Source: a virus
Lineage: Duplodnaviria; Heunggongvirae; Uroviricota; Caudoviricetes
Reading direction: 5' to 3' (one strand)
Virus record (IMG/VR): IMGVR_UViG_2872152978_000006
Coordinates: 1 to 20,661 of that record
Length of the DNA stretch: 20,661 bases
Of this stretch, positions 1,204 through 17,888 are shown in pieces; position 1 is the first letter of the stretch, and every line of letters begins with the position of its first letter. The translations under genes and the position numbers were made by a program. The notes beneath the pieces are model-generated. The model saw only the letters and a list, made by a program, of their open reading frames with translations, had not been told where the DNA came from and ran no database searches.

Positions 1204-1345
1204 CTGTATGAATAGACCGTGTTAAGCAATGGTAGTAGACTTATGTAGACGAACAAAGAATAGGCTATGTCTAGGCTGATCCCCGAAAACCCGTACACCC
1301 CTACGGGCTGGCATAGCCGTCAGAATTAGGGGCGCGGGGTGGCGT

Positions 1346-2227
1346 ATGGTGAGAGCCAAAAAACAAGATTTAGCATGGTTTGATATTAGTAATTATGAAT
1401 TTTTAAATGATTTAACCTTGCCGGACTTGATTCAAGAATTAGAGTGGCGCGATTTTTTATTGCGTCATGCAAAAGATGACACTGCTATATTCAAAGAAGA
1501 GTACGATATAAAATATGAAAGGATTTTTTCGGGCGATCCTAACCTAACCATTCTCAATGAAGAAGAGGAAGAGGTCGAAGAATTTATTCGCAAAGTAAAT
1601 GATGAAGCCCCATCATTAAGAAATGAGTACGATGATCTTCCCTCATTATCTTCAGCTATGGGGGTTAGTCCAGTAACATTTTCAGAGCTGGCCATGTACT
1701 CTTTCTCATCGATAGATCAAGGCTTTTTTAAAAGAGACGAAGAGGATTGCTACCTCAAGGCAAACGCTATGCTTGCGAGTGTTACTGGAAACCTAAGTAA
1801 TTGTTCCCCTAACATCATACTCGTTTCTATAGATTTAGATGACGCCACTGATGACGAAATTATTACCAGCCTGACTCACCTTCTACCTCTATGGCGAAAA
1901 GAGTTAAAAGTACCAGAGAGAGAGCATGTCGCTCAGAAAAGGATTGGATTAAAGACCCTTCAGAAGTTGATATCTAATAGAGTGATACCTATTGTTGATC
2001 TGCTGATTTGGGGTGAGAAGTCAGGTAAGGAAGTGAGCAATCCGATGATTTCTGCCTTGGTTTTTAGTGATGATCCGAAAGATACGCAGGCTATTAAGGA
2101 ATCAATAAAGCCTTTTGCACTTGAATCTATAAGCGAGAGATACACCCGCTTGCTTCAGCTTTATGTAAACAAAGACAGAGAAATGAGCTTGATAAAAATA
2201 TCTGATTTAATGAGTAGAGATTTATAG
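1346..2227 (+). CDS. hypothetical acidic protein, AT-rich cargo gene in the int-alpA slot
   Basis: 293-aa ORF, ATG start, visibly AT-rich relative to flanks, many D/E residues including an EEEEEVEE run; no family recognised. Confidence 0.55.
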   Translation: MVRAKKQDLAWFDISNYEFLNDLTLPDLIQELEWRDFLLRHAKDDTAIFKEEYDIKYERIFSGDPNLTILNEEEEEVEEFIRKVNDEAPSLRNEYDDLPSLSSAMGVSPVTFSELAMYSFSSIDQGFFKRDEEDCYLKANAMLASVTGNLSNCSPNIILVSIDLDDATDDEIITSLTHLLPLWRKELKVPEREHVAQKRIGLKTLQKLISNRVIPIVDLLIWGEKSGKEVSNPMISALVFSDDPKDTQAIKESIKPFALESISERYTRLLQLYVNKDREMSLIKISDLMSRDL

Positions 2228-2271
2228 CAAGCAAAATCCTACGTAAACGTTTTAAGTAAATTTCGCGATTT

Positions 2272-2306
2272 CCGCTTTGAATACGCTACTGTGTATTTCA
2301 AAGCGG
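2272..2306. promoter_or_regulatory. inverted repeat (10-bp arms CCGCTTTGAA / TTCAAAGCGG, 15-nt loop) upstream of alpA
   Basis: Perfect 10-bp arms read directly; lies between the orphan gene stop and alpA; no T-run directly after it, so function (terminator or operator) is uncertain. Confidence 0.3.
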
Positions 2307-2424
2307 ATAATCTTCTCAAAAAAATATTTTATTTTTATCCGCTATCACCCATTCACCGGTTTGTTTAATCTCCTTTCTGTCTACTGATGTCCATTAAAGA
2401 AGATGACAGAATATAGGAGTAAAC

Positions 2425-2622
2425 ATGTCTCAATCATTTATTCGTCTTTCTGAGGTTCAACGCCGTACTGGTTACAGCAAAGCGTGGATTTATCGGCTCA
2501 TCAAAGAACAGCGATTCCCTCAATCTGTAAAGATTGGAAGCCGATCAATTGCGTTTATTGAAAGTGAAATTGAAGAATGGATTAATCAGCGCATCGCTGA
2601 GTCGCGTGGCGAGGTAGCGTAA
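2425..2622 (+). CDS. alpA: AlpA-family phage transcriptional regulator / excisionase-like DNA-binding protein
   Basis: 65-aa ORF with AGGAG RBS; sequence FIRLSEVQRRTGYSKAWIYRLIKEQRFPQSVKIGSRSIAFIESEIEEWI fits the AlpA/Vis helix-turn-helix family. Confidence 0.85.
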   Translation: MSQSFIRLSEVQRRTGYSKAWIYRLIKEQRFPQSVKIGSRSIAFIESEIEEWINQRIAESRGEVA

Positions 2623-2964
2623 TGAATAAGAAAAACCGCCCATTACAGGCGGCTAATTCAGATATTCGCGTATCTGATGTTACGCCCCTTACAAAATCCC
2701 TTCAAGCACCAAAGCGCACACCGAAAAAGCATCGTGCCAGAGTCTATATGCTGCGTACTGGTATAGAGGGATGGACAGAAAATGACATTCTTCGCTACTG
2801 CCGTCTGTCTTCTGGTCGTAACTATGCAACAGAGTTAGAACGCCAGCTTGGAATCACTCTGGAACGTATCGACGAAAAGAATCCTGATGGTATCGGAACA
2901 CACCTTCGCTACCGTTTCTCCTGCCGTGGTGATGTTCTGAAAGTGATCACTCATGGATTTGCCC

Positions 2965-3870
2965 CTATATTTCCAGACATCTGTTATCACTTAACCCATT
3001 ACAAGCCCGCTGCCGCAGATATTCCCGTGGCGAGCGATAACCCAGCGCACTATGCGGATGCCATTCGTTATAATGCTCGAACGCCTCTGCAAGGTTCTTT
3101 GCTGCCGTTAACCCGTCTGGTTTGGGCATGATACTGATGTAGTCACGCTTTATCGTTTTCACGAAGCTCTCTGCTATTCCGTTACTCTCCGGACTCCGCA
3201 CCGCCGTGTTCTTCGGTTCAAGTCCCAACATCCGGGCGAACTGGCGTGTTTCATTAGCCCGGTAGCATGAACCATTATCCGTCAGCCACTCCACTGGAGA
3301 CGACGGAAGATCGTTGCCGAAGCGGCGTTCCACCGCTCCCAGCATGACGTCCTGTACTGTTTCACTGTTGAAGCCGCCGGTAGTCACCGCCCAGTGCAGT
3401 GCCTCACGATCACAGCAGTCCAGCGCGAACGTGACACGCAGTCTCTCTCCGTTATCACAGCAGAACTCGAACCCGTCAGAGCACCATCGCTGATTGCTTT
3501 CTTTCACGGCCACTCTGCCTGTATGTGCCCGTTTCGATGGTGGTACAGCAGGTTTTCGCTCAAGCAACAGCGCATTCTGGCGCATGATCCGGTAAACACG
3601 TTTGGCATTGATCGCAGGCATACCATCAAGTTCTGCCTGTCTGCGAAGCAGCGCCCATACCCGACGATAACCATACGTGGGCAGCTCTCCGATAACATGG
3701 TGTATACGGAGAAGCACATCCGTATCATCAGTGTGACGACTGCGGCGGCCATCCATCCAGTCATCGGTTCGTCTGAGAATGACGTGCAACTGCGCACGCG
3801 ACACCCGGAGACAACGGCTGACTAAGCTTACTCCCCATCCCCGGGCAATAAGGGCGCGTGCGCTATCCAC
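2965..3870 (-). CDS. insD: IS2 transposase OrfB (InsD)
   Basis: 301-aa ORF recognised as IS2 InsD (DDE integrase core, HSDRGSQY-type region). Confidence 0.9.
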
Positions 3871-4193
3871 TTTTTTGCCCGTCCATATTCAACGGCTTCT
3901 TTGAGGAGTTCATTTTCCATCGTTTTCTTGCCGAGCAGGCGCTGGAGTTCTTTAATCTGCTTCATGGCGGCAGCAAGTTCAGAGGCAGGAACAACCTGTT
4001 CTCCGGCGGCCACAGCAGTAAGACTTCCTTCCTGGTATTGCTTACGCCAGAGAAATAACTGGCTGGCTGCTACACCATGTTGCCGGGCAACGAGGGAGAC
4101 CGTCATCCCCGGTTCAAAGCTCTGCTGAACAATTGCGATCTTTTCCTGTGTGGTACGCCGTCTGCGTTTCTCCGGCCCTAAGACATCAATCAT
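3828..4193 (-). CDS. insC: IS2 OrfA (InsC), HTH protein
   Basis: Start placed at the internal Met of the 136-aa ORF ([25 protein letters not shown]...), giving the 121-aa InsC; overlaps insD start as expected for a frameshift-fusion IS3-family element. Confidence 0.85.
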
Positions 4194-4401
4194 CTGTACT
4201 CCAATGACTAGTCTAAAAACTAGTATTAAGACTATCACTTATTTAAGTGATACTGGTTGTCTGGAGATTCAGGGGGCCAGTCTAACTCATATTAACCATC
4301 TTGCGAACATAAATGATCACAACGGACTTTCTCAGCAGGAAATTGCCGACATTCTGAAACTCTACCCGGACGCGTTTAACGCCGCTTAACGGAGACTGAA
4401 A

Positions 4402-5235
4402 ATGAACATCGAAAAAAGCAGATTAATTTCTGAGGCCGCCCCTCATCTGAACGCCTCTCTGAGCACAATTAACGGTAATGAATTTGCCGCAATTGTCCCG
4501 GTTATTCCTGGTCATATCGGTGGGCGTGAAACCAATATTGTTAGCGCAAAAGCGTTACACAAAGCGTTGGGCGTGGGAAAAGACTTCTCTACATGGATCA
4601 CTGATCGCATCTCTGAATATGACTTCACCATTGGGCACGATTACTCAGTCCATAAAACAATTTCCCCAAATTTGGGGAAAAGCCCGAATGGCGCGGCTTA
4701 CAGCAAGATTAAGCAGTCTGGCAGACCCGGCAAAGACTATCTGTTAAGTGTCGGAATGGCGAAAGAACTGGCAATGATCGAACGCAATGATCAGGGTCAC
4801 GCTATCCGCCGTTATTTCATCCAGTGCGAGGAAGAATTACAGCGTAGCGTGCCTGAAATCGCCGCACGCTATCGTCGCCAGCTAAAAGCCCGTATCAGTG
4901 CCGCAAACAACTTTAAGCCAATGTGCGATGCGCTGAATATGGCCCGTGCCGAGATGGGGAAAACGACGCAGCAACACCACTACACAAACGAGAGCAATAT
5001 GATTTCTCGTATCGTTCTTGGTGGGCTAACTGCTAAGCAGTGGGCGCGGATAAATGGCTATTCTGGCGAACCTCGCGACCATATGAACGCAGAACAGCTT
5101 GAGCACCTCTCATATCTCGAAAGCACCAATATCACGTTAATTGATATGGGCATGGAATATGAGCAGCGCAAAGGAGAACTCACCCGCCTGTCGCAACGCT
5201 GGCTCGCCAAGCGTCTGGAGGCGCTCAATGTCTAA
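4402..5235 (+). CDS. phage antirepressor-like protein (AntA/Bro-N-type N-terminal domain)
   Basis: 277-aa ORF; region SAKALHKALGVGKDFSTWITDRISEYDFTIGHDY and GMAKELAMIERNDQGHAIRRYFIQCEEEL resemble AntA/antirepressor domains. Family call from memory. Confidence 0.55.
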   Translation: MNIEKSRLISEAAPHLNASLSTINGNEFAAIVPVIPGHIGGRETNIVSAKALHKALGVGKDFSTWITDRISEYDFTIGHDYSVHKTISPNLGKSPNGAAYSKIKQSGRPGKDYLLSVGMAKELAMIERNDQGHAIRRYFIQCEEELQRSVPEIAARYRRQLKARISAANNFKPMCDALNMARAEMGKTTQQHHYTNESNMISRIVLGGLTAKQWARINGYSGEPRDHMNAEQLEHLSYLESTNITLIDMGMEYEQRKGELTRLSQRWLAKRLEALNV

Positions 5236-5407
5236 GCCAACAGGAACACCACAACCACAAAAACGCTACAAAGATGCCCACGGAGCACTCGTTACTGTCG
5301 AAAGCGTGTCTCACAACCGAGTGACGTTTTATCGCGACGGGTATCAATCGCCATGCGTACAACCGCTGGCGCGTTTCATGAAGGAGTTCGCGGAGGTTAA
5401 CCAATGA
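5228..5407 (+). CDS. small hypothetical protein (59 aa)
   Basis: ATG at 5228 overlaps the upstream stop (AATGTCTAA) and its stop overlaps the next start (ATGA): translational coupling. Confidence 0.4.
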   Translation: MSKPTGTPQPQKRYKDAHGALVTVESVSHNRVTFYRDGYQSPCVQPLARFMKEFAEVNQ

Positions 5408-6065
5408 TACCCGTCCAGAAGAAGACATTTTCACTGGCTGGCATGTCGCCAAAATCCAGAAATATGACGGCAAAGTCAGGCATTAATACAGCAGATACAA
5501 GCAAAGTTTATCATTTGCTGGTGGTCGGAACGGATGCCTTAACCATACCAGAAATCTCGGGCGATGATATTAGCATTGAGAAGGTCAGCGGCTGCGCCAG
5601 AAAATTTCTGGTCGTAGATGATGTCTTCAGCTCGTGTAGTGACTCCACAAAAACATTCGTCCACGCGCGTGACGTTAACGAAATGAGCGCGATGTACTGT
5701 GCTTCTGGTTCTTCCAATAGTGAGTTTTCGGAGTCCATAAAAAAGAGCTTGCCGTTATGCGGCAACACGGTTTATGGTTATAAGGCACCTCATAAAACGG
5801 GTGCCGGGATTGGCGTCCTGGTAAATCGAATGGCGACATATGACGCGCCGAGCGTCTTTTTTTATGTCGTAGGTCTGACTCACCCATTTTTTGGGCGTTG
5901 GTGTATAATCCAGCGCCTTTGTCAATCAATGGTGGCTCAGGCAGGGGCTTCTTCGGAAGCGCCGGTATCCATTCGAGCCGGTTACGCCAACCCTGTCTGG
6001 GCTACCACCAGCGAAATTGGCGTTTCCGGTGGTAGCGTTACATGCTATCGAATGGAGGCTGCCAC
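5404..6065 (+). CDS. hypothetical protein; 3' extent uncertain (the open frame continues to 6471 but overlaps better-supported small genes in other frames)
   Basis: Start is coupled to the upstream gene by ATGA overlap; 355 stop-free codons are unlikely by chance, but the protein has no recognisable features. Confidence 0.25.
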
Positions 6066-6260
6066 ATGCTGGCTACTACCCCTACCCAAAAACCGCAATT
6101 TATCTGGATTATCGCCGCAGTTCGCCGCGATTGCCCGACAATTACCGCCAAAATTCATCATATTGCTGCCGAGTCTGAACGCGATGCTCGCCGTTATCTG
6201 GTGCGCGATCACATCTGCTTTTTTGCTGGTCGTATCCGCATGGAGGTGGCACATGATTAA
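6066..6260 (+). CDS. Icd-like small protein (host cell division inhibitor family of P4-like elements)
   Basis: 64-aa ORF with GGAGG RBS 7 nt upstream; motif QFIWIIAAVRR...AAESERDARRYL...FAGRI resembles Icd-like proteins. From memory. Confidence 0.45.
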   Translation: MLATTPTQKPQFIWIIAAVRRDCPTITAKIHHIAAESERDARRYLVRDHICFFAGRIRMEVAHD

Positions 6261-6471
6261 AACCTACGATGTGCATATGGATCCCCTCGAACGCACAAGC
6301 CAGATCATCACACTGACAGAAGTGATTAACGACATTCTGGTGAGCAACTCTCCCTCACGAGACGAAAGACTGAAGGCGTTACTCGCGATATTGGATCTCG
6401 CCGTTCGTGACGTTCATTTCCTGCTGGAAGGTGGCGAAATGCCAGGAAAAACGGGGGCAACCAATGAATAA
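6253..6471 (+). CDS. small hypothetical protein (72 aa)
   Basis: ATG with GGAGG RBS; start overlaps the Icd-like stop; stop overlaps the next start. Confidence 0.4.
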   Translation: MIKTYDVHMDPLERTSQIITLTEVINDILVSNSPSRDERLKALLAILDLAVRDVHFLLEGGEMPGKTGATNE

Positions 6472-6658
6472 CTCAATTAATACCCCTCGCCTTACGTCCG
6501 CACTTCAATTAATCGAGCAAGCAGCGGCTGTCCTGGTTGCTGTCAGTCTTTCGGCTGAAGAAATGGACGCTACTGATGTCGTGGATGCGATTAAAGCGTG
6601 CTCATCTTTGGTTAACGATGCCCGTGCCGAGCTGGTAATTCTTGGGGGTGAAAAATGA
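6464..6658 (+). CDS. small hypothetical protein (64 aa)
   Basis: ATG at 6464 inside the longer track ORF 6407-6658; overlapping start/stop with neighbours. Confidence 0.4.
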   Translation: MNNSINTPRLTSALQLIEQAAAVLVAVSLSAEEMDATDVVDAIKACSSLVNDARAELVILGGEK

Positions 6659-6918
6659 ATATCAACTTAATTTATCGTCATCCGTGTGAGCTGGAAATTG
6701 AATCATTGCTGGGGCGTGAAGAGCCATATCCAGACACATTCACTCCCGCAGATTGCGCGACTGAACGGCTTACCAGAGCGCGCACAGGTCTGGTTCATGT
6801 GATGAATGAGATTGTTCCCTCGGTGGGAGGGGAACAGGCGACAGTAATCAATAGCTGGCTACAAAAAGTTACCTCCCTGATAGATATCGGTTTAATCGAT
6901 GTGGAGAGTGCGAAATGA
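6655..6918 (+). CDS. small hypothetical protein (87 aa)
   Basis: ATGA overlap with upstream gene; part of the coupled small-gene chain. Confidence 0.45.
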   Translation: MNINLIYRHPCELEIESLLGREEPYPDTFTPADCATERLTRARTGLVHVMNEIVPSVGGEQATVINSWLQKVTSLIDIGLIDVESAK

Positions 6919-7070
6919 CCAACATCCAGCTCATTGAAGCGCAATGTCGCATCGAACAGGTTCAGACTGTTTTAGGGTTCTGGCTTGAAGGGGCCAGCCC
7001 CAGCAACAGAGACAAGTTAATGATTGGCGCGGTTATGTCACTGCTCAATGGCGTACCAGAAGCTATTTAG
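6915..7070 (+). CDS. small hypothetical protein (51 aa)
   Basis: ATGA overlap with upstream stop; below the ORF-track length cutoff; translated by eye as MTNIQLIEAQCRIEQVQTVLGFWLEGASPSNRDKLMIGAVMSLLNGVPEAI. Confidence 0.35.
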   Translation: MTNIQLIEAQCRIEQVQTVLGFWLEGASPSNRDKLMIGAVMSLLNGVPEAI

Positions 7071-7108
7071 GAAGCGGACGAATTGTTGGGCAAATATGAG
7101 TTACAGAA

Positions 7109-8427
<1,319 letters not shown>

Positions 8428-8947
8428 GAACCAGACGTTCGCTCCTACAGCACCAAATCAGGTCTGGGTGGCGGACCTGACGTATGTTGCCACACAGGAG
8501 GGATGGTTGTACCTCGCTGGCATCAAAGATGTTTATACGTGCGAAATTGTCGGCTACGCCATGGGAGAGCGCATGACAAAAGAGCTGACAGGTAAAGCCC
8601 TGTTTATGGCGCTCAGGAGCCAGCGCCCACCTGCCGGGCTAATCCACCACTCTGATCGAGGTTCACAGTACTGCGCATACGATTACCGGGTCATACAGGA
8701 GCAGTCTGGTCTGAAAACATCAATGTCGCGTAAAGGTAACTGTTACGACAACGCTCCGATGGAAAGCTTCTGGGGAACGCTGAAAAATGAGAGCCTGAGC
8801 CACTATCGTTTTAATAACCGGGATGAAGCCATCTCAGTAATACGGGAATACATTGAGATTTTCTACAATCGTCAGCGTCGTCACTCTCGTCTGGGGAATA
8901 TCTCCCCGGCAGCCTTCAGGGAAAAATATCATCAGATGGCTGCTTAA
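8428..8947 (+). pseudogene. C-terminal fragment of a different IS3-family transposase OrfB (IS600-like?)
   Basis: Open frame begins at the IS911 junction with no N-terminal portion; contains DDE-region motifs HSDRGSQY and SRKGNCYDNAPMESFWGTLKNE; precise IS identity not recognised. Confidence 0.75.
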
Positions 8948-8958
8948 AAAAAGAACAA

Positions 8959-9462
8959 ATGGTAGTGTCCGCTATTGCCAGTACACCTCACCGGGTGGCA
9001 TGGATAAACCCGGAAGAGAGTAAATCAAACCGCGCAATTGGCGTTGCGCTGAATGATACTGCATGTCGCGTATTGAAAAAACAAATCGGGAATCATCACC
9101 GTTGGGTATTTGTGTATAAGGAAAGCTGTACCAAACCAGACGGAACGAAAGCGCCAACAGTCAGGAAGATGCGGTATGACGCAAACACAGCCTGGAAAGC
9201 GGCGCTGAGACGAGCAGGTATTGATGATTTCAGATTTCACGACTTGAGACACACCTGGGCAAGTTGGCTGGTTCAAGCCGGAGTCCCGTTATCAGTGTTA
9301 CAGGAAATGGGAGGCTGGGAGTCTATCGAAATGGTTCGTCGATATGCTCACCTCGCACCTAATCACCTTACCGAACACGCACGGCAAATAGACTCGATTC
9401 TGAACCCATCGGTCCCAAATTTGTCCCAGTCAAGAAATAAGGAACGTACTAATGATGTGTAA
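8959..9462 (+). pseudogene. C-terminal fragment (about 155 aa) of a tyrosine integrase
   Basis: Contains the catalytic HxxR box ([11 protein letters not shown]) and Tyr region ([12 protein letters not shown]) but not the N-terminal domains or first catalytic Arg; begins right after the IS3-family remnant. Integrase homology starts near 8990. Confidence 0.7.
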
Positions 9463-9690
9463 CTTATTGATTTAAATGGGATAATAGGAACAATACACAT
9501 AGGCGATAAGCTTTGTTTTTGTTGCCTTTTTTATTGTTCATTTTTTATAGATACCCCCAAAAGTACCCCCATATCTTTTTCCGCCCCTGAAATTTGGTTG
9601 TTATTCATACACCATATCAGGCGGTAACGCTCTCCCTTTAACCCACTTATTGTATGATAGTGCTATCCCACAATAAGGAATCAGCCAGCC

Positions 9691-10050
9691 ATGAGAATGA
9701 CCAGTCGCAAAAAAGAGATACTTAGCTACTTTGAACCGGATAACCTCGAATGGGTGACTGGTGAGATTGGTGCGCCGCCGTTCGATGTGTCGGGTGTGGC
9801 CTACCTGCTTCATGGCATGGTGTCGTTCGATAAGCGTCACCAGCTCGAATCAACCCGGCGCACACTGGAAAGCATGGTTGCTGGTGGACTGCTTGAGCGG
9901 GTGACAGTGTATGAATCGCGCCAGATACGGCGCGGCGGTGATACTAACGCAACGGTCGTGCGCTACGGTTTACCCGGTCAGTGCGCTGTTATGCGCGATA
10001 CTGGCGGCGCTGACAACGCAATATCAGGTGAATACATGCGGGTCAGTTAA
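9691..10050 (+). CDS. hypothetical protein (119 aa)
   Basis: ATG with AAGGA RBS; no family recognised; 3' end overlaps the convergent gene by 8 bp. Confidence 0.45.
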   Translation: MRMTSRKKEILSYFEPDNLEWVTGEIGAPPFDVSGVAYLLHGMVSFDKRHQLESTRRTLESMVAGGLLERVTVYESRQIRRGGDTNATVVRYGLPGQCAVMRDTGGADNAISGEYMRVS

Positions 10051-10585
10051 TAGCCTGCAATCTGTCGTTGATGCGGCTCAGGTCGTAAACCCGGCGTTCA
10101 ATATCCAGCATCAGGAAATTGTGGATCTCGGCCTGCTCAGGATTATCAGACTCTCTGGCCTGTAATAGCAATTCATTGTAACCATGCAAGCCGCCTGAGT
10201 TTTCCGCCGGGGTGGTGCCTTTCCCACGCAGGCAGCTAATGGGCTGATTACTCGTATCGTGTGTTTTCTTCTCCAGCACAATGACGCAATCCCACCAGTC
10301 GCCAAAGTCATACGTGTAAACCAGCTTGTCACCCTCATTCTGGAGCGCCGCCCATAGTGGCGTGATTGCCGCGTTACCCATGCTTTCATCCTCACCCCAT
10401 ACGCGATACTCGCTACCTGGATCACCTTTACGCCCTTTCTCGAACATATACAGGTGTTCGTCATTCCAGCCAAAAGCTAACTGGATCACGGCATGAAGTT
10501 TACTAAAGGGGATTTGCTCTGGAACCAGCACACGCCGCCATATAGGTGGTTTGCTGTCTCGGATGGTTATCTTTAGCTGGTACAT
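10043..10585 (-). CDS. plasmid pRiA4b ORF3-like family protein (function unknown)
   Basis: 180-aa ORF; N-terminal YQLKITIRDSKPPIWRRVLVPEQIPFSKLHAVIQLAFGWNDEHLYMF matches the pRiA4b ORF-3 signature. Confidence 0.75.
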   Translation of the reverse strand: MYQLKITIRDSKPPIWRRVLVPEQIPFSKLHAVIQLAFGWNDEHLYMFEKGRKGDPGSEYRVWGEDESMGNAAITPLWAALQNEGDKLVYTYDFGDWWDCVIVLEKKTHDTSNQPISCLRGKGTTPAENSGGLHGYNELLLQARESDNPEQAEIHNFLMLDIERRVYDLSRINDRLQAIN

Positions 10586-10705
10586 GCAAATCCTGAATAA
10601 ATGCGAATCGGAAGGATAACGATACTGACGTACTCACAATTCTGTAAAGGTGAATAAAGGAAATTTGCTTAATACGCATAAGTTACATGTGGAATAATCC
10701 CATAT

Positions 10706-10891
10706 CTACCTGCGCGGCGCTGGCTTCTTCCACTGGTAGGCAGGTGCTCGCATCATTTCGCGGAACCTGTCGCGCCGGGCTATATCGGCATTAACTGATC
10801 GTTCTATCTCCCGTTGATCTGCCTGTGTAAGCTGGTGGCCTCCGTGCTCAAGTTTGGCGATGGTCAATAAGGCTATTTCGCGTGGTGTCAT
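10706..10891 (-). CDS. small hypothetical protein (61 aa)
   Basis: Good SD (AGAGGA) 8 nt upstream of the ATG on the minus strand; no family recognised. Confidence 0.4.
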   Translation of the reverse strand: MTPREIALLTIAKLEHGGHQLTQADQREIERSVNADIARRDRFREMMRAPAYQWKKPAPRR

Positions 10892-11162
10892 ACGTCATAT
10901 CCTCTGGAAGGATGAAACACGCCCGGATTAAATTTCATTTTTCGCGGGTATAAAAAAACGATGGGGCGGGCAGTCCCGGATAGTCAGGGCTGTAGAGATT
11001 TGACTACCCCCTCCCCACTGTATTCAGGTTACTGCTATTCCGTTAAGCGCTGCTTACGGGGATAGCTGCGTTGTGATTTTGACCATTCAGGTCGCCGCTA
11101 TTTCCTCACCGATTGGGTGCTACGCGCGCGCGTACTTGTCCCGAAATACCAGAAACCGCCAG

Positions 11163-11184
11163 CCAGAGGATGATTTCCCTCTGG
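11163..11184 (-). terminator. hairpin (CCAGAGG - 8 nt - CCTCTGG) just downstream of the minus-strand PerC gene
   Basis: 7-bp perfect stem 5 bp beyond the PerC stop; T-run is weak, so terminator function is tentative. Confidence 0.3.
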
Positions 11185-11188
11185 TGGT

Positions 11189-11470
11189 CTACCTTTGCCT
11201 CTTGCCGCCATTTAACCGGAAGGCGTTACCGTTCGGTTGCGCTATCCCCATGCGGTGTTGCGTTTCGGTAACAGCTTTATGCAGGTCGCCAAATTCCTCA
11301 ACCTTCACGGGCGGGCGCTTCACGTTCTCCAGACACGTTTCACGGCGGCGCTTTATCCATTCCCGATCATCGTCCTCGGAGCATAACAGCATGACTTCCA
11401 TCCATCGTGCGGCAGCTCTCCGGTATAGCCCTTTTGACTCCAGCTCTTCAGCTTTCCTGTCCCTTATCAT
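11189..11470 (-). CDS. PerC-family transcriptional regulator
   Basis: 93-aa ORF with ELESKGLYRRAAARWMEVM, characteristic of PerC/Pch-like prophage regulators; GAGG RBS. Confidence 0.7.
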   Translation of the reverse strand: MIRDRKAEELESKGLYRRAAARWMEVMLLCSEDDDREWIKRRRETCLENVKRPPVKVEEFGDLHKAVTETQHRMGIAQPNGNAFRLNGGKRQR

Positions 11471-11505
11471 TTCTGCCTCTCAGATTATATAGATAAGCAA
11501 AAAGG

Positions 11506-11620
11506 TGTTGGTTCAGTTGGTTTAATTTGTAAAGATCGTTGTTTTTATTATGTTTTTTTCTAAAATATTGAACCAACATCAACTCATTTTGAACCAACAC
11601 AGCCCAGCTCTGAACCAACA
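11506..11620. repeat. iteron array: TGAACCAACA direct repeats at 11569, 11590, 11611 (exact 21-bp phasing) plus one inverted copy at 11506-11515
   Basis: Read directly from sequence; sits in the divergent intergenic region between PerC (minus) and the RHH gene (plus). Confidence 0.7.
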
Positions 11621-11685
11621 ACACAGCGATAGCTTTGTGATTGGTCCGTTATTTTCTGGCTGATATTTGAGCGTATAACAGTGTT

Positions 11686-11704
11686 ATACAGTGGTATACT
11701 GTAT
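11686..11704. promoter_or_regulatory. 7-bp inverted repeat ATACAGT - 5 bp - ACTGTAT (candidate operator) about 30 bp upstream of the RHH gene start
   Basis: Arms at 11686-11692 and 11698-11704 are exact reverse complements. Confidence 0.35.
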
Positions 11705-11733
11705 GGATATTACTCACTGATATGGTCTTTGCA

Positions 11734-12177
11734 ATGAGCAAATCTAATCTGATCGCGTTCCGCATCCCATCTTAATTGCAGGATGAGTTTAATCGGTCTG
11801 TTCTCGCTTCTGGAGGGGATAAAACCTCCTGGCTTGTTGATGCGATTCGCATGAAGCTGGGACAGCCGGAAAAGTCTATTGATTCACGAATGCTTGGGCT
11901 GGTGGAGCGCATGGAAAAAGCCGCTGCGTCGCTTATTGCCGGAAAGCCGAACATCCCACCAAAGCCATATAACGAAACGGCAGTTATAAAGATCATTGCC
12001 GATACCATCCAACAGGGATTTGATAATGGGCGTGTGATAGCTGAACGGATCAATGAAGCAGGCTATCAAACAAAAGCTGGTAAAGCGTGGGATAAAGATA
12101 TTTACAGCGCGTGGAAGCGTCAGGGAAGCAATGCTGAAAATTTAAAAGCGGTGATTGATTGTAAGGTCAGCGTATAA
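11734..12177 (+). pseudogene. ribbon-helix-helix (Arc/MetJ/CopG-like) DNA-binding protein with an in-frame TAA after codon 13
   Basis: ATG 11734 encodes MSKSNLIAFRIPS, then TAA at 11773-11775, then the same frame continues LQDEFNRSVLASGGDKTSWLVDAIRMKLG..., the helix-turn-helix part of an RHH fold. The ORF track places a TTG restart at 11776. Confidence 0.5.
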
Positions 12178-12289
12178 ACATGAGTGCCCATTGGAAAGTA
12201 AGCGTACAGCCTGAACCGTCTGGTCAGAATCTGACGAATTAGACAAAGTGGTGTCCACCAAATAAGTAGTGGGAACCAAAGTGTCAGAT

Positions 12290-12670
12290 ATGCAGAAAAA
12301 TGTGAATCCCGGCAGGCGAAAAGGCTGCCCTAATTATCCTCCCGAATTTAAACAGCAGCTCGTTGCTGCCTCCTGTGAACCCGGGATATCCATCTCAAAA
12401 CTTGCTCTTGAAAATGGCATTAACGCCAATCTGTTGTTCAAATGGCGACAACAATGGCGCGAGGGAAAGCTGCTATTACCTTCTTCAGAGAGCCTCCAGC
12501 TACTTCCTGTGACTCTCGATGCAGCTGCCGAACAGCCAGAATCGCTCGCAGAGGATCCGGAAACCCTCAGTATCAGCTGTGAGGTAACGTTCCGGCACGG
12601 GACGCTCCGCTTCAATGGCAATGTCAGCGAAAAGCTCCTGACTCTGCTGATACAGGAACTGAAGCGATGA
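12290..12670 (+). CDS. IS66-family TnpA (orf1)
   Basis: Family-typical small HTH protein; ATG at 12290 preferred, alternative GTG at 12269 from the ORF track. Confidence 0.75.
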   Translation: MQKNVNPGRRKGCPNYPPEFKQQLVAASCEPGISISKLALENGINANLLFKWRQQWREGKLLLPSSESLQLLPVTLDAAAEQPESLAEDPETLSISCEVTFRHGTLRFNGNVSEKLLTLLIQELKR

Positions 12671-13014
12671 TCCCGTTACCTTCCGGGACCAAAATTTGGC
12701 TGGTTGCCGGTATCACCGATATGAGAAATGGCTTCAACGGCCTGGCGGCAAAGGTGCAGACGACGCTGAAAGACGATCCGATGTCAGGTCACGTTTTTAT
12801 CTTCCGTGGGCGTAATGGCAGTCAGGTAAAGCTCCTCTGGTCTACCGGCGATGGACTGTGTCTGCTGACCAAACGGCTGGAGCGCGGCCGCTTCGCCTGG
12901 CCGTCAGCCCGGGATGGCAAAGTGTTCCTCACACCGGCACAGCTGGCGATGCTCCTTGAAGGTATCGACTGGCGGCAGCCTAAAAGACTGCTTACGTCCC
13001 TGACTATGTTGTAA
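12667..13014 (+). CDS. IS66-family TnpB (orf2)
   Basis: 115-aa ORF coupled to tnpA by ATGA overlap; motif LVAGITDMRNGFNGLAAKV. Confidence 0.85.
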   Translation: MIPLPSGTKIWLVAGITDMRNGFNGLAAKVQTTLKDDPMSGHVFIFRGRNGSQVKLLWSTGDGLCLLTKRLERGRFAWPSARDGKVFLTPAQLAMLLEGIDWRQPKRLLTSLTML

Positions 13015-13062
13015 GCCTCTTTATCCTGGTCGACGCTGAATGAGCCTGGTAATATACCCGGT

Positions 13063-14601
13063 ATGAGCAGCTCACTTCCTGACGATATCAATGCACTGAA
13101 ACGTCTCCTTGCCGAACAGGAGGCGCTGAACCGTGCCCTGCTGGAAAAGCTGAACGAGCGTGAACGCGAAATAGACCATCTGCAGGCACAGCTGGATAAG
13201 CTGCGCCGGATGAACTTCGGCAGCCGCTCCGAAAAAGTCTCCCGTCGTATCGCACAGATGGAAGCTGACCTGAAGGCACTTCAGAAAGAAAGTGATACCC
13301 TTACCGGTCGGGTTGACGACCCGGCCGTGCAGCGCCCGCTGCGTCAAACCCGCACCCGCAAACCGTTCCCCGAATCACTCCCCCGCGATGAAAAACGGCT
13401 GCTGCCGGCAGCGTCATGCTGCCCGGAATGTGGAGGCTCACTGAGCTATCCGGGTGAGGATGCCGCCGAACAGCTGGAGTTGATGCGCAGCGTCTTCCGG
13501 GTTATCCGGACTGTACGTGAAAAGCATGCCTGTACTCAGTGCGATGCCATCGTGCAGGCCCCCGCGCCTTCACGGCCCATCGAGCGGGGTATCGCAGGAC
13601 CGGGGCTGCTGGCCCGCGTGCTGATCTCAAAGTATGCAGAGCACACCCCGCTGTACCGCCAGTCTGAAATGTACGGCCGCCAGGGCGTGGAGCTGAGTCG
13701 TTCACTGCTGTCGGGCTGGGTGGATGCATGCTGCCGGCTACTGTCACCGCTGGAAGAAGCGCTTCAGGACTATGTGCTGACTGACGGTAAGCTCCATGCT
13801 GATGACACGCCTGTCCCGGTGCTGTTGCCAGGCAATAAGAAAACGAAGACCGGGCGGTTATGGACCTACGTTCGTGACGACCGTAACGCCGGGTCAACGC
13901 TGGCGCCGGCGGTGTGGTTCGCTTACAGCCCGGACAGAAAAGGCATCCATCCGCAGACCCATCTTGCGGGGTTCAGTGGTGTACTGCAGGCGGATGCATA
14001 CGCCGGGTTCAACGAGCTGTACCGGGATGGCCGGATAACGGAAGCCGCCTGTTGGGCTCACGCCCGCCGTAAAATCCACGATGTGCACGTTCGCACCCCG
14101 TCAGCCCTGACGGAGGAAGCGCTGAAACGGATCGGCGAACTGTACGCCATCGAGGCAGAGATAAGGGGAATGACGGCGGAGCAGCGCCTTGCCGAACGTC
14201 AGTTGAAAACGAAACCGCTGCTGAAATCCCTGGAAAGCTGGCTGCGTGAAAAGATGAAAACCCTGTCGCGACACTCAGAACTGGCGAAAGCGTTCGCATA
14301 CGCCCTGAACCAGTGGCCGGCGCTGACGTACTATGCAGATGATGGCTGGGCTGAGGCGGACAATAACATCGCTGAAAATGCGTTGCGGATGGTCAGTCTG
14401 GGCCGCAAAAACTACCTGTTCTTCGGTTCGGATCATGGAGGAGAGCGGGGAGCGCTGCTGTACAGCCTGATCGGGACGTGCAAACTGAACGGAGTGGAGC
14501 CAGAAAGCTACCTCCGCTATGTCCTTGACGTCATAGCCGACTGGCCGATAAACCGGGTCGGCGAACTGCTCCCCTGGCGCGTAGCACTGCCGACTGAATA
14601 A
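13063..14601 (+). CDS. IS66-family transposase TnpC (orf3)
   Basis: 512-aa ORF with N-terminal leucine-zipper region, CxxC zinc-finger-like motifs (CCPECGG, CTQCD) and a DDE-type core. Confidence 0.9.
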
Positions 14602-14623
14602 CACATCCCCGTCAATACGGTTC

Positions 14624-15205
14624 TTGCTGCACGCTTACAAAAAAGCGGGTTTTCACCCGTCAGAATCTGGCGGGGATCCGTCAGTAAAATCAAAACATGA
14701 TCCGTCAGATAAAAAACCTTCTCGTCCGGACGCTTCGCAACCGGACACGCAGACGGCTGAACAGGATTTTTTAACTCGCCATCCTGATGCGGTTGTATTC
14801 AGCCCTAAAAAGCGCCAGTGGGGGACGCAGGATGATTTGACCTGCGCACAGTGGCTCTGGAAAAAAATCATCGCCCTGTACGAGCAGGCTGCCGAATGTG
14901 ACGGCGAGGTGGTTCGTCCCAAAGAACCGAACTGGACAGCCTGGGCAAACGAAATTCGCCTGATGTGTGTACAGGATGGCCGTACACACAAACAAATCTG
15001 CGAGATGTACAGCCGCGTCAGCCGCGATCCGTTCTGGTGCCGTAACGTGCTCAGCCCGTCGAAGTTGCGGGAAAAATGGGATGAGCTTTCCCTGCGCTTA
15101 TCGCCGTCCGTCAGCACGCACACAGAAAAACGTGAAGACCCGTACTTCAAAGCCAGTTACGACAACGTGGACTACAGCCAGATCCCGGCAGGATTCAGGG
15201 GGTGA
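14624..15205 (+). CDS. DnaT-like phage replication protein (primosomal DnaT C-terminal domain); 5' end abuts or is interrupted by the IS66 element
   Basis: C-terminus ...SYDNVDYSQIPAGFRG parallels the E. coli DnaT C-terminal end (...SQIPPGFRG, from memory); the ORF-track start is a TTG inside the IS terminal repeat, so the native start is probably lost or upstream of the insertion. Confidence 0.6.
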   Translation: MLHAYKKAGFHPSESGGDPSVKSKHDPSDKKPSRPDASQPDTQTAEQDFLTRHPDAVVFSPKKRQWGTQDDLTCAQWLWKKIIALYEQAAECDGEVVRPKEPNWTAWANEIRLMCVQDGRTHKQICEMYSRVSRDPFWCRNVLSPSKLREKWDELSLRLSPSVSTHTEKREDPYFKASYDNVDYSQIPAGFRG

Positions 15206-15207
15206 GC

Positions 15208-15696
15208 ATGAGTCTTTTGAATGACGTTCAGAAATTCATTGAAGCCCATCCGGGGTGTACTTCCGGAGACATTGCGGATGCTTTTGCAGGTTACTCACGG
15301 CAGCGCGTTCTGCAGTCTGCAAGCAAGTTACGTCAGAGTGGGCGTGTGGCTCACCGTTGTGAAGGAGATACACGCAGACATTTCCCGCGCCTGACTGAGA
15401 GAGCGCAGGAACCGGGACCACAATCAGTTCGAGAAACCAGACCTGTGCGCAATTTCTATGTCGGCACTAACGATCCCCGGGTGATTTTGTGCCTGACCCG
15501 CCAGGCTGAAGAACTGGAGTCCAGGGGCTTATACCGTCGTGCTGCAACGGTGTGGATGGCGGCATTCCGTGAAAGCCACTCCCAGCCAGAACGAAACAAT
15601 TTTCTGGCGCGTCGTGAGCGGTGCTTACGGAAAAGCAGCAAGCGCGCTGTATCGGGTGATGAGTGGTATCTGTCAGGGAATTACGTGGGGGCTTAA
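15208..15696 (+). CDS. PerC-family regulator with N-terminal winged-helix-like extension
   Basis: Contains AEELESRGLYRRAATVWMAAF, paralogous to the motif in 11189-11470; ATG 15208 preferred (GGGGG RBS) over the overlapping GTG at 15202. Confidence 0.65.
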   Translation: MSLLNDVQKFIEAHPGCTSGDIADAFAGYSRQRVLQSASKLRQSGRVAHRCEGDTRRHFPRLTERAQEPGPQSVRETRPVRNFYVGTNDPRVILCLTRQAEELESRGLYRRAATVWMAAFRESHSQPERNNFLARRERCLRKSSKRAVSGDEWYLSGNYVGA

Positions 15697-16349
15697 TGAG
15701 TAATAAATATTGCCAGGCGCTGGTGGAGTTGCGAAACAAACCAGCCCATGAACTGAAGGAAGTGGGCGATCAGTGGCGCACACCGGACAACATTTTCTGG
15801 GGAATTAACACCCTGTTTGGCCCGTTTGTTCTGGAGCTGTTTACTGACGGTGATAACGCCAAATGTGCCGCGTATTACACGGCGGAAGACAACGCGCTGG
15901 CGCATGACTGGTCAGAACGTCTTGCGGAGCTTAAAGGTGCTGCCTTTGGAAATCCTCCATACAGCCGCGCCAGTCAGCATGAGGGGCAATACATCACCGG
16001 CATGCGTTACATCATGAAACATGCCAGTGCCATGCGTGATAAGGGCGGGCGCTATGTTTTCCTGATCAAAGCTGCCACCAGCGAAGTGTGGTGGCCGGAA
16101 GATGCGGATCATATTGCTTTTATTCGCGGGCGTATTGGTTTTGAACTGCCTGCCTGGTTTATCCCGAAAGACGAGAAGCAGGTGCCAACCGGTGCTTTCT
16201 TCGCTGGTGCTATTGCCGTTTTCGACAAGACCTGGAAGGGACCGGCAATCAGCTACATCGGGCGCGATGAACTTGAGGCATGTGGTGAGGCCTTTCTGGC
16301 GCAAGTTCGCCAGCAGGCAGAAAAACTTGTCAGGGAGATGGCGGCATGA
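15696..16349 (+). CDS. phage DNA N6-adenine methyltransferase (Dam-like)
   Basis: ATG overlaps upstream stop (TAATG); catalytic NPPY motif (FGNPPYS) and overall similarity to phage Dam methylases. Confidence 0.75.
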   Translation: MSNKYCQALVELRNKPAHELKEVGDQWRTPDNIFWGINTLFGPFVLELFTDGDNAKCAAYYTAEDNALAHDWSERLAELKGAAFGNPPYSRASQHEGQYITGMRYIMKHASAMRDKGGRYVFLIKAATSEVWWPEDADHIAFIRGRIGFELPAWFIPKDEKQVPTGAFFAGAIAVFDKTWKGPAISYIGRDELEACGEAFLAQVRQQAEKLVREMAA

Positions 16350-16672
16350 CGACGTTAACTCAATGCCAGCAGCAGGTGCTGGATATGCTGATTTCTTACC
16401 AGAAAGAACGTGGCTTCCCGCCAACCAATCAGGAGGTGGCAACCATGCTGGGATACCGTTCAGTGAATGCAGCGGTGGAGCATCTTAGAGCACTGGAGAA
16501 AAAAGGCGTCATCACGATAAAGCGTGGTGTGGCCCGTGGTATCACTCTTCATACCGCGGTGAAGGACGACGACAGCGAGGCGGTCGGGATTATCCGCTCA
16601 CTGCTTGCCGGTGAGGAAAACGCAAGGCTGCGTGCAACTCACTGGTTACATGAGAGAGGCCTGAAAGTATGA
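16346..16672 (+). CDS. LexA-like N-terminal DNA-binding domain protein (no peptidase domain)
   Basis: ATGA coupling; LTQCQQQVLDMLISYQKERGFPPTNQEVATMLGYRSVNAAVEHLRALEKKGVI resembles the LexA winged-helix DNA-binding domain. Confidence 0.65.
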   Translation: MTTLTQCQQQVLDMLISYQKERGFPPTNQEVATMLGYRSVNAAVEHLRALEKKGVITIKRGVARGITLHTAVKDDDSEAVGIIRSLLAGEENARLRATHWLHERGLKV

Positions 16673-17058
16673 AGCTGATCCTGCCTTTCCCGCCCAGCGT
16701 GAACACCTACTGGCGACACCCCAACAAAGGGGCATTTGCTGGTAAGAGCCTGATAAGCGCGGCGGGGCGAAAATTTCAGAGCGCGGCGTGCGCAGCAATA
16801 GTTGAGCAGTTACGTCGTCTGCCAAAACCAACGTCGGCACCTGCTTCAGTGGAGATCGTGTTGTTTCCTCCGGATAACCGGATCCGCGATCTGGACAACT
16901 ATAACAAGGCGCTGTTTGACGCCCTGACCCACGCGGGTGTGTGGGAAGACGACAGACAGGTGAAAAGAATGCTGGTGGAGTGGGGACCGGTTATCCCGAA
17001 AGGGAAGGTCGAGATCACTATCAGTAAGTATGAGAAACCGGCGGGTGCAGCCGCCTGA
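16669..17058 (+). CDS. rusA: RusA-family Holliday junction resolvase
   Basis: 129-aa ORF; LPFPPSVNTYWRH...DLDNYNKALFDALTHAGVWEDD matches RusA endodeoxyribonuclease motifs including the catalytic Asp cluster. Confidence 0.85.
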   Translation: MKLILPFPPSVNTYWRHPNKGAFAGKSLISAAGRKFQSAACAAIVEQLRRLPKPTSAPASVEIVLFPPDNRIRDLDNYNKALFDALTHAGVWEDDRQVKRMLVEWGPVIPKGKVEITISKYEKPAGAAA

Positions 17059-17077
17059 TTAAGAGGAGAAACGAAGT

Positions 17078-17887
17078 ATGAATAATCTGATGGTTATTGA
17101 TGGTATTGAAGTTCGTCGTGATGCTTATGGGCGTTACAGCCTGAACGATCTGCACAGGGCAGCCGGGGGAGAACAAAAAAACCGCCCGAAATACTGGCTC
17201 TCCAATAAGCAAACCTGTGAATTGATTGAACAACTTTTCACCGAGGGTGGAATTCCGCCTCTGGAACAAAATCAACCAGTTAGCGTCATTAATGGCGGAA
17301 ATAACCAGGGGACGTATGTCTGCAAAGAACTGGTGTATGCCTATGCAATGTGGATCAGCCCGTCATTCCATCTGAAGGTGATCCGTACTTTCGATATGGT
17401 AACCAGCGCACCGGAAAAATTATCCGGGCAGGCTGCTGACAAGATGCAGGCTGGAGTGATTCTGCTGGACTTTATGCGCAGGGAGTTAAACCTGTCTAAC
17501 TCTTCAGTGCTTGGTGCCTGTCAGAAACTCCAGGAGGCTGTTGGCTTACCGAATCTGGCACCGCGCTATGCCATTGATGCTCCTGCTGACGCGCCTGATG
17601 GCTCAAGTCGCCCTACGCTGTCGCTGAGTGCACTGCTGAAACAGTATGGTATCCGCCTTACGGCTAATCAGGCATATCACCAGATGGCGAAGCTGGGGAT
17701 CGTTGAACAACGCGAACGATACAGCCGTACCTCGATTAACAACATCAAAAAATTCTGGTCGCTGACAGCGAAAGGCTGCATGTTCGGCAAGAACATCACC
17801 AGTCCCGCAAATCCGCGCGAGACGCAGCCGCATTTCTTCGAATCCCGATTCCCTGAGCTGTTAAAGCTGCTCGATACCGTTCATTGA
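17078..17887 (+). CDS. KilA-N domain protein
   Basis: AGGAG RBS; N-terminal MVIDGIEVRRDAYGRYSLNDLHRAAGGEQKNRPKYWLSNKQT typical of the KilA-N DNA-binding domain. Confidence 0.7.
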   Translation: MNNLMVIDGIEVRRDAYGRYSLNDLHRAAGGEQKNRPKYWLSNKQTCELIEQLFTEGGIPPLEQNQPVSVINGGNNQGTYVCKELVYAYAMWISPSFHLKVIRTFDMVTSAPEKLSGQAADKMQAGVILLDFMRRELNLSNSSVLGACQKLQEAVGLPNLAPRYAIDAPADAPDGSSRPTLSLSALLKQYGIRLTANQAYHQMAKLGIVEQRERYSRTSINNIKKFWSLTAKGCMFGKNITSPANPRETQPHFFESRFPELLKLLDTVH

Positions 17888-17888
17888 G

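Follow-up and report, generated by a model that had tools for sequence, protein, structure and literature searches.

Two open reading frames (ORFs) of the PerC family lie 3.7 kb apart and on opposite strands in a stretch of DNA from a virus of the Caudoviricetes, which raises the question of whether they arose together and what they regulate. The stretch analyzed here, referred to as the window, comprises positions 1 to 20,661 of the IMG/VR record IMGVR_UViG_2872152978_000006. An initial annotation of the two genes, here called copy 1 (minus strand) and copy 2 (plus strand), had described them as paralogues that flank the replication module of a single prophage remnant and form host-directed regulatory cargo. 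Our analysis leads to a different answer. The region is best explained as a scrambled thrW hotspot in which two independent mobile elements, each with one PerC-family gene, now adjoin, and the probability of this explanation as a whole is estimated at about 80%. Both genes are known entities, namely, the orthologue of EcCIMP1_025 and YfdN.

Membership of both products in the PerC family was recovered in several ways. Copy 1 matched the Pfam PerC profile (PF06069) with 106.1 bits (E = 1.2e-30, residues 1 to 85 on profile positions 1 to 85 of 90), and copy 2 matched it with 38.1 bits (E = 1.9e-9, residues 100 to 153 on profile positions 5 to 58 of 90). Both scores exceed the gathering score of 22.6 bits, and the shared motif thus aligns to the family profile; a failure to align had been named as a possible refutation of the family assignment. 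BLASTP between the two products found 24 of 56 residues identical (43%, E = 4e-11), and the string AEELES[KR]GLYRRAA..WM is common to both. When PerC of enteropathogenic Escherichia coli (EPEC; plasmid pMAR2) and PchA of enterohemorrhagic E. coli (EHEC; Sakai Sp4) were added to the alignment, the core A..LE..G.YRRAA..W...R...R..C was invariant across all four proteins (A7, L10, E11, G14, Y16, R17, R18, A19, A20, W23, R36, R43, and C46 in copy 1 numbering). PchA, taken from the Sakai record, was the one Pch protein aligned (PchB to PchE were left out); a search for homologues of EPEC PerC gave only three clusters. Finally, a scan of all 405 stop-to-stop segments in the six frames of the window with a PerC hidden Markov model (HMM) returned only these two ORFs (E = 6e-46 and 5e-32), the next-best segment having an E value of 0.006. 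As the profile scores, BLASTP, the invariant motif, and the six-frame scan agree, the likeness of the two sequences is attributed to homology, and chance is ruled out. The existence of both ORFs and their shared motif, as first annotated, are thereby confirmed. However, the proteins differ in architecture. Copy 1 fits the single-domain, full-profile PerC form of approximately 90 to 105 amino acids (aa), whereas copy 2 covers only profile positions 5 to 58, and its PerC core is preceded by a 95-residue N-terminal winged helix and linker.

Copy 1 is identical at 92 of 93 residues (S31T) to WP_000617443.1, the sole PerC-family coding sequence of EcCIMP1, a phage-inducible chromosomal island (PICI) of E. 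coli MP1. By sequence, it is therefore the orthologue of EcCIMP1_025, an accessory regulator of a thrW-integrated PICI. It is 39% identical to EPEC PerC and 37% identical to PchA, and it has the C-terminal helix MG...FR and the length class of these two proteins.

Copy 2 is identical at 158 of 164 residues (96%) to YfdN (b2357) of E. coli K-12, of which it is the orthologue; its identity to PerC and PchA is 32 to 40% over 50 to 56 residues. In K-12, yfdN is flanked by a truncated O gene (yfdO) on one side and by a dam fragment (yfdM) on the other, and tblastn found copy 2 in 57 phage records, including SfV, SfII, SfIV, ST64B, mEp460, and Stx2c phages. Both SfV and ST64B are arranged as cI - cro - ... 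- replication protein - yfdN-like - dam - LexA-like - rusA - ... - Q, and the order from the truncated O gene (O') to Q in the window (14639 to 19650) is the same as that in SfV, ST64B, and the LD22-1 prophage. Copy 2 shares bases with both of its neighbors, with the O stop at its start codon (GTGA) and with the dam start at its stop codon (TAATG). Given these overlaps and the O-to-Q gene order, copy 2 belongs to the early operon as a tightly packed gene and is no moron. This distinguishes it from pchA of Sakai, a moron that lies on the reverse strand, with Q on one side and the lysis genes on the other.

The sequences around the two genes have different origins. Megablast against 5,426 complete E. 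coli genomes split the region into a left flank, an IS66 center, and a right flank. By blastn, the left flank (window positions 9459 to 12198) corresponds to positions 12857 to 15598 of enterotoxigenic E. coli (ETEC) H10407 (L001) at 99.0%, and positions 9477 to 11599 correspond to positions 8706 to 10836 of E. coli MP1 (L004) at 98.4%. The left block is also present in O111:H8, and the sequence upstream of copy 1 beyond position 11599 follows the H10407 variant. The right flank (14638 to 18865) is 97.6% identical to a lambdoid prophage of E. coli strain LD22-1. Homology of both flanks breaks exactly at the ends of ISEc22, an insertion sequence (IS) of the IS66 family with 22-nucleotide (nt) terminal inverted repeats that begin with GTAAGCG (12198 to 12219 and 14617 to 14638). 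The element has no 8-bp target duplication, as the flanking 8-mers ATTGGAAA and AAAAAAGC differ, which fits an IS-associated deletion or inversion or a recombination of two IS copies. Neither the region as a whole nor the junction between the IS66 element and O' was found in any of the complete E. coli genomes, and none of the species-representative genomes has the exact 36-mer of the junction.

No intact replication module lies between the two genes, contrary to the earlier description. The interval holds one small ORF, ISEc22, and a 5'-truncated O gene of which the last approximately 189 of 313 codons are left. This fragment matches PHROG 391 ("replication initiation O-like") over profile positions 119 to 298 of 298 only, and homology to the O gene of the LD22-1 prophage (L002, 8619 to 9560) starts at position 8993, 374 nt inside that gene. 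Also absent from the window are cI, cro, pR, and the first approximately 125 codons of O.

Further evidence for two elements comes from the attachment (att) site. The LD22-1 prophage has an integrase next to thrW (L002, 3209 to 2707), and the 3' fragment of a lambdoid-type tyrosine integrase that adjoins the left flank in the window is 97.4% identical to it. In the alignment, it ends in a thrW att core at approximately 9459 to 9489 (AATGG..GATAATAGGA, with a 4-bp deletion), across which prophage sequence switches to PICI sequence. This hybrid core shows that thrW had received both an island and a lambdoid prophage, in tandem. The published architecture of EcCIMP1, which lies between proA/thrW and yagU and comprises thrW, int, an antirepressor, Ash, a primase, and PerC (PMC11773190), matches window positions 1 to 7179 plus 9459 to 12198. 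Segment 8991 to 12198 is inverted relative to both the island integrase and O'-yfdN, which are on the plus strand, and it is bounded by IS3-family fragments (7109 to 8947) and ISEc22. Because the inverted segment lies between these IS elements, the 3.7-kb spacing of the two genes is read as the product of an IS-associated inversion and deletion. Under the proposed course of events, the island and the lambdoid prophage would have integrated in tandem at thrW, and an IS-associated inversion/deletion with ISEc22 at the junction would then have cost the prophage its immunity region, its pR, and the 5' part of O, leaving copy 1 and copy 2 in their present positions on opposite strands. No primase or rep gene was detected in the window, where island homology ends at position 7179 and the IS3 fragments begin. 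With the primase missing and a single array of the origin of replication (ori) type left beside the perC-like gene, the island is a degraded remnant.

The gene identities, domain content, element boundaries, and synteny given above are observed. Copy 1 lies in an EcCIMP1-like PICI and copy 2 in an SfV-type operon, and the two are joined by an ISEc22 copy without target duplication. This leaves little room for the view that the two genes are diverged paralogues of one prophage remnant that surround its replication module and act as host-directed activators of LEE (the locus of enterocyte effacement) or of other PerC-responsive loci. Both proteins do belong to the PerC family by profile and carry the core motif of the LEE activators PerC and PchA, but they share 43% identity over 56 residues only and differ in architecture, and a thrW att core as well as ISEc22 separates their flanks. 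The island arrangement is nearest to that of LEE-positive O111:H8 strains, and PerC/Pch proteins from mobile elements activate LEE1 (PMC4764244, PMC5931665). However, the near-identical orthologue of copy 1 represses it: when expressed in Citrobacter rodentium, EcCIMP1_025 (99% identical) silences LEE1-lux dose-dependently, while EPEC perC activates it (PMC11773190; ISME J 2025). The PerC-like genes of the PICIs EcCIEDL933 and EcCICFT073 are without effect on LEE1 fusions, according to the part of PMC11773190 that cites Porter 2005, and group 1 Pch proteins (PchA to PchC), but not PchD or PchE, drive ler (PMC5931665, PMC6265319). YfdN, in turn, lacks the C-terminal third of the PerC profile, sits in a packed early operon, and is known from K-12, which has no LEE. 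Activation of the LEE, which the initial annotation had brought up for PerC/Pch homologues in prophages, is not the expected activity. The junction analysis largely refutes the reading of one remnant with two activators, which we consider very improbable.

The presence of two divergent PerC-family genes in one remnant had also been regarded as unusual. Among the complete E. coli genomes, the copy 1 flank is present in 672 of 5,426 and the copy 2 (yfdN) flank in 3,322. PerC-family genes occur on 239 plasmid records, and O157 Sakai carries five pch genes (PMC5931665). PerC variants are frequent PICI cargo, and only some of them activate the LEE (PMC6092414, PMC11773190). Two PerC-family genes in one strain are ordinary, and their closeness in the window is a rearrangement artifact.

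What follows on the molecular mechanism of either protein, and on whether either is expressed in the source strain, we infer. For copy 1, the AlphaFold2 model is all-helical (predicted local distance difference test [pLDDT], 82.7), with core helices at residues 5 to 13, 16 to 29, and 33 to 51 and two helices beyond this three-helix core. The NCBIfam ANR model (NF033650; cut-off, 32 bits) covers the same 46-residue core in both proteins (profile positions 5/7 to 51/52 of 54). Copy 2 scores 23.4 bits and EPEC PerC itself 18.2 bits on this model, and 31 of 39 relatives of copy 1 match it at an E value of 0.001 or below. A protein of Klebsiella variicola that is 78% identical to copy 1 (P0137) reaches 32.5 bits and bears the NCBI name ANR. 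As a side observation, NCBI calls this protein "ANR family transcriptional regulator" and near-identical proteins "PerC family," such that 1 to 2 bits around the ANR cut-off flip the annotation. By these scores, the copy 1 subfamily is on the PerC/ANR border. Proteins of the ANR family have three helices and bind activators of the AraC family (PMC4983702), and they also modulate H-NS (as stated in PMC11773190), while Pch acts by relief of H-NS/StpA/Hha silencing at LEE1 (PMC4764244). The authors of PMC11773190 suggested that EcCIMP1_025 is an ANR-type repressor. By analogy, copy 1 most likely acts on an AraC-type regulator or on H-NS-type nucleoid complexes. As the att-distal accessory regulator of a degraded EcCIMP1-like PICI that has kept its own upstream region with an ori-type array, it would use its first three helices as the PerC/ANR core and would work through protein or nucleoprotein contacts, with H-NS-type silencing complexes or AraC-type activators as proposed targets, and not as a classical DNA-binding activator.

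For copy 2, the initial annotation had noted an N-terminal extension resembling a winged helix, and this is borne out by structure prediction. The AlphaFold2 model (pLDDT, 75.9 overall) places a winged helix at residues 2 to 62 (pLDDT, 81 to 89) in the order helix, short strand, helix, helix, beta-hairpin, followed by a disordered linker (65 to 86) and a three-helix PerC core (about 92 to 151; pLDDT, about 90). The top Foldseek matches of the N-terminal domain (approximately 60 residues) in the PDB were ArsR/SmtB, MarR, PadR, and Z-alpha winged helices with root mean square deviations of 1.6 to 3 Å, with E values of 0.003 to 0.2 that are not significant. Copy 2 belongs to PHROG 1324 and also weakly matches a PHROG whose annotation is MarR family. 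Natural variants carry other domains before the PerC core (HTH_36/GntR-type in P0107; MarR_2 plus HTH_24 in P0292), which points to modular domain shuffling as judged from the sequences. Approximately 25 divergent 50%-identity clusters (25 to 47% identical) retain the two-domain form and the tail W-x-L-[SA]-G-x-[YF]-x-G, which reads W-Y-L-S-G-N-Y-V-G in copy 2. The conserved tail and the exchanged N-terminal domains were noted in the set of YfdN-type proteins P0107, P0292, P0232, P0250, P0264, and P0280. The dN/dS of copy 2 against ST64B is 0.19 overall and 0.12 to 0.23 per domain, and a value of about 0.2 indicates that YfdN is under purifying selection. YfdN may be a DNA-tethered modulator of transcription or nucleoid structure, made in early lytic growth. 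In the literature found, no function of YfdN or of its phage orthologues is published; it is mentioned only as "K-12 PerC homologue," and yfdN was deleted from an MG1655 ler::lacZ reporter strain merely to clear background (PMC5931665).

Several observations weigh against the explanation favored here or against parts of it. In O111:H8 strains, which are without the prophage, the island end is inverted in a similar way, and the order of the rearrangement events is a reconstruction. A simple scan detected no sigma-70 consensus promoter for copy 1 or copy 2, and the native promoter of copy 2 is gone, so that its transcription is possible only via read-through from IS66 tnp. On the ANR model, copy 1 scores 31.1 bits and stays below the cut-off. 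Neither sequence searches nor Foldseek against the PDB found a solved structure that resembles the PerC core, and the contact-based mechanism therefore rests on analogy. No AraC-family partner gene was detected by Pfam among the neighboring ORFs scanned (9691 to 12177). The LEE1 silencing by EcCIMP1_025 comes from overexpression in a heterologous host (PMC11773190), and the silencing protein differs from copy 1 by one residue.

The missing consensus promoters would also be expected if both genes were silent relics, that is, intact ORFs in decayed elements without current expression or function. Decay is plain in both elements, as the island is without primase and has several IS cuts, the prophage is without int, xis, cI, cro, pR, and the 5' part of O, and the yfdO-yfdN-yfdM remnant of K-12 is equally decayed. 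Yet both ORFs are full length, copy 1 is 99% identical including its whole upstream region with invariant repeats, and tnpC points into O'-yfdN and stops just 37 bp short of the IS end, which makes read-through possible. We regard silence of both genes as credible but unlikely; it is compatible with the part of our best explanation that concerns their origin. The O frame is open into the right end of ISEc22 (TTG at 14624, within the inverted repeat), and tnpC and O'-yfdN run in the same direction. Judging from this arrangement, read-through could give rise to a truncated C-terminal domain of O and to expression of yfdN-dam.

An iteron-type array lies directly upstream of copy 1 and abuts its -35 position. 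It begins with GTTGGTTCA twice in tandem on the plus strand with 9-bp spacing, the second copy with one mismatch, and continues with an AT-rich core and three GTTGGTTCA copies on the minus strand at an exact 21-bp spacing. H10407, MP1, and O111 have the GTTGGTTCA 10-mers unchanged, whereas the intervening spacers have diverged. EcCIMP1 has another array built in this way, inverted and directly 3' of the primase gene, and exact GTTGGTTCA sites number 12 in 30 kb, compared to 0.34 expected. Published PICI origins follow the primase/rep gene and consist of two iteron sets around an AT-rich core (PMC6092414); the array in the window has the same layout but is located beside the perC-like gene. The island Rep of H10407 is 85% identical to that of MP1 over the first approximately 350 residues and unrelated thereafter, and the H10407 island has its own iterons, TGGTAYAGGT, in two arrays (L001, 21984 to 22090 and 20874 to 20977). 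Nevertheless, it keeps the GTTGGTTCA array beside the perC-like gene, from which it follows that the cognate Rep is not always present. On sequence comparison, this looks like a swap of Rep/iteron specificity in H10407, with two arrays per island as a recurrent design. The GTTGGTTCA array may be an orphan or secondary origin, a copy-control site, or an operator.

This array could mean that copy 1 serves the island life cycle instead of host virulence control, with its promoter embedded in the ori-type array, its level set by Rep or replication, and feedback on island or helper genes. The position of the array against the -35 element, the conservation of the 10-mers but not the spacers, and the duplication of the EcCIMP1 array directly 3' of the primase, where PICI origins lie, are what such a role would lead one to expect. 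The retention of the GTTGGTTCA array in H10407 despite a different C-terminal half of Rep and other iterons is not, and the helper phage Kapi1 has no PerC-family gene to mimic. We therefore hold a role in the island life cycle to be distinctly unlikely. A related idea, that the satellite copy mimics YfdN of the helper, was rejected, as Kapi1, the EcCIMP1 helper, has no PerC-family ORF in any frame.

Two other readings were also discarded. A core resembling tetratricopeptide repeats (TPR) was considered; the sole repeat-protein match (P0301, six stretches) is an unrelated repetitive secreted protein, and when the copy 1 model was compared with the PDB by Foldseek, the best E value was 1.1 (MIT and TPR helices). 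An anti-phage defense role of the accessory block was not supported by PADLOC, which gave no significant match for copy 1, the pRiA4b protein, or the neighboring small ORFs; the match of copy 2 to GajB (E = 0.0076, 13 bits), the sole one within the E value limit of 0.01, is negligible.

A more general hypothesis, which we judge improbable and put forward as speculation, is that the PerC/ANR three-helix core is a portable effector module in competing elements. SfV-type phages would employ it early, together with the replication proteins, and tethered to DNA by a winged helix; EcCIMP1-type satellites would employ the bare core, from a promoter within an ori-type iteron array and at a dose set by Rep or replication, against virulence through H-NS- or AraC-directed contacts. 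In the literature found, we met neither the duplication of the iteron array nor YfdN's two-domain form.

Coordinates of the features discussed are collected in Table 1. Beside the perC-like gene, the pRiA4b ORF-3 gene overlaps the opposite-strand 119-aa ORF, and the trio that these form with the 61-aa ORF travels with the perC-like gene in H10407, O111, and MP1. At least five IS copies or fragments occur in the 20.7 kb (2955 to 4285, two of the IS3 family at 7109 to 8947, 12198 to 14638, and 19804 to 20501). This density suggests an IS-rich host, either Shigella-like or of an IS-expanded E. coli lineage.

TABLE 1 Positions of features in the window and, in the last row, in EcCIMP1
Feature	Position	Strand	Remarks
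Proximal PICI part	1-7179	plus	97-99% identical to O111:H8, MP1, and H10407 (blastn)
PICI integrase	1-1203	plus	thrW island type
DUF6387 gene	within 1-7179	plus	Pfam/NCBIfam
Inserted IS3-family element	about 2955-4285		In proximal PICI part
AntA antirepressor	4402-5235		In proximal PICI part
Ash-family gene	5404-6471		In proximal PICI part
IS3-family fragments	7109-8947		After proximal PICI part
3' fragment of lambdoid-type tyrosine integrase	8991-9489	plus	NCBIfam tyrosine-recombinase matches
Distal (att-side) PICI accessory block	9459-12197	mixed	EcCIMP1-like
Hypothetical ORF	9691-10050	plus	PICI distal block; 119 aa
pRiA4b ORF-3 family gene	10043-10585	minus	PF07929 (Pfam PRiA4_ORF3); 180 aa
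61-aa ORF	10706-10891	minus	PICI distal block
Copy 1 ORF	11189-11470	minus	PerC family; 93 aa
Shine-Dalgarno sequence GAGAGG	11481-11476	minus	Upstream of copy 1
TATAAT hexamer	11489-11484	minus	Upstream of copy 1
Iteron-type repeat array	11507-11619	both	Directly upstream of copy 1
Hypothetical ORF	11776-12177	plus	PICI distal block
ISEc22/ISEc8-type IS66-family element	12198-14638	plus	Complete; 99.5-99.7% identical to annotated ISEc22
tnpA	12269-12670	plus	133 aa
tnpB	12667-13014	plus	115 aa
tnpC	13063-14601	plus	512 aa
O-like replication initiator (yfdO-like)	14639-15205	plus	5'-truncated; last ~189 of 313 codons
Copy 2 ORF	15202-15696	plus	164 aa; ATG at 15208 is an alternative start (162 aa)
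Rest of SfV-type early-right operon	15696-19650	plus	dam methylase, LexA-DNA-binding-domain protein, RusA, KilA-N, DUF968, Q-like antiterminator (Pfam)
IS1 (InsA/InsB)	19804-20501		
EcCIMP1 arrays (MP1, L004)	10736-10856 and 19276-19396		Positions in L004

The locus calls for a correction in how such gene pairs are read. Closely spaced PerC-annotated genes do not indicate a virulence-regulatory cassette, and their closeness here is an IS artifact at a tRNA hotspot. Likewise, the label "PerC family transcriptional activator" is unsafe, as members of the subfamily can activate, repress, or do nothing at LEE1. Work on phage satellites could profit from two of the observations made here, the ori-type iterons before a perC-like gene and YfdN's architecture of a winged helix joined to a PerC core.

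Among known systems, EcCIMP1 is the closest to the island part of the window. EcCIMP1_025 (WP_000617443.1) has the same neighbors as copy 1 (the 61-aa ORF and the pRiA4b ORF-3 protein), the same upstream array, and a thrW island of the same type, which includes integrase, antirepressor, and Ash. In contrast to EcCIMP1, the island in the window is without the primase and DNA-ejection genes, and its distal block runs opposite to the integrase and borders on ISEc22, where EcCIMP1 has the helix-turn-helix gene of the island. For copy 2, the counterpart is YfdN of the K-12 cryptic prophage CPS-53, with the phage orthologues SfV orf40 and ST64B sb43; YfdN is as long as copy 2 and likewise has an O-like gene before it and dam after it. 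CPS-53 lies at argW, whereas the window lies at thrW; both O neighbors are truncated, that of the window by ISEc22.

The virulence regulators of the family are more distant. PerC (BfpW, EPEC pMAR2) and PchA (Sakai Sp4) have the Pfam family and the invariant core in common with both copies, but perC occupies the third place in the per operon of the plasmid, and the published activity of the copy 1 orthologue EcCIMP1_025 is opposite to that of PerC. The ANR family, exemplified by Aar of enteroaggregative E. coli (EAEC), consists of small three-helix proteins, and the cores of copy 1 and copy 2 are likewise modeled as three helices. ANR proteins are smaller than 10 kDa, compared to 93 aa with two extra helices for copy 1 and 164 aa with a winged helix for copy 2. 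Like the ANR proteins, EcCIMP1_025 lowers virulence gene expression.

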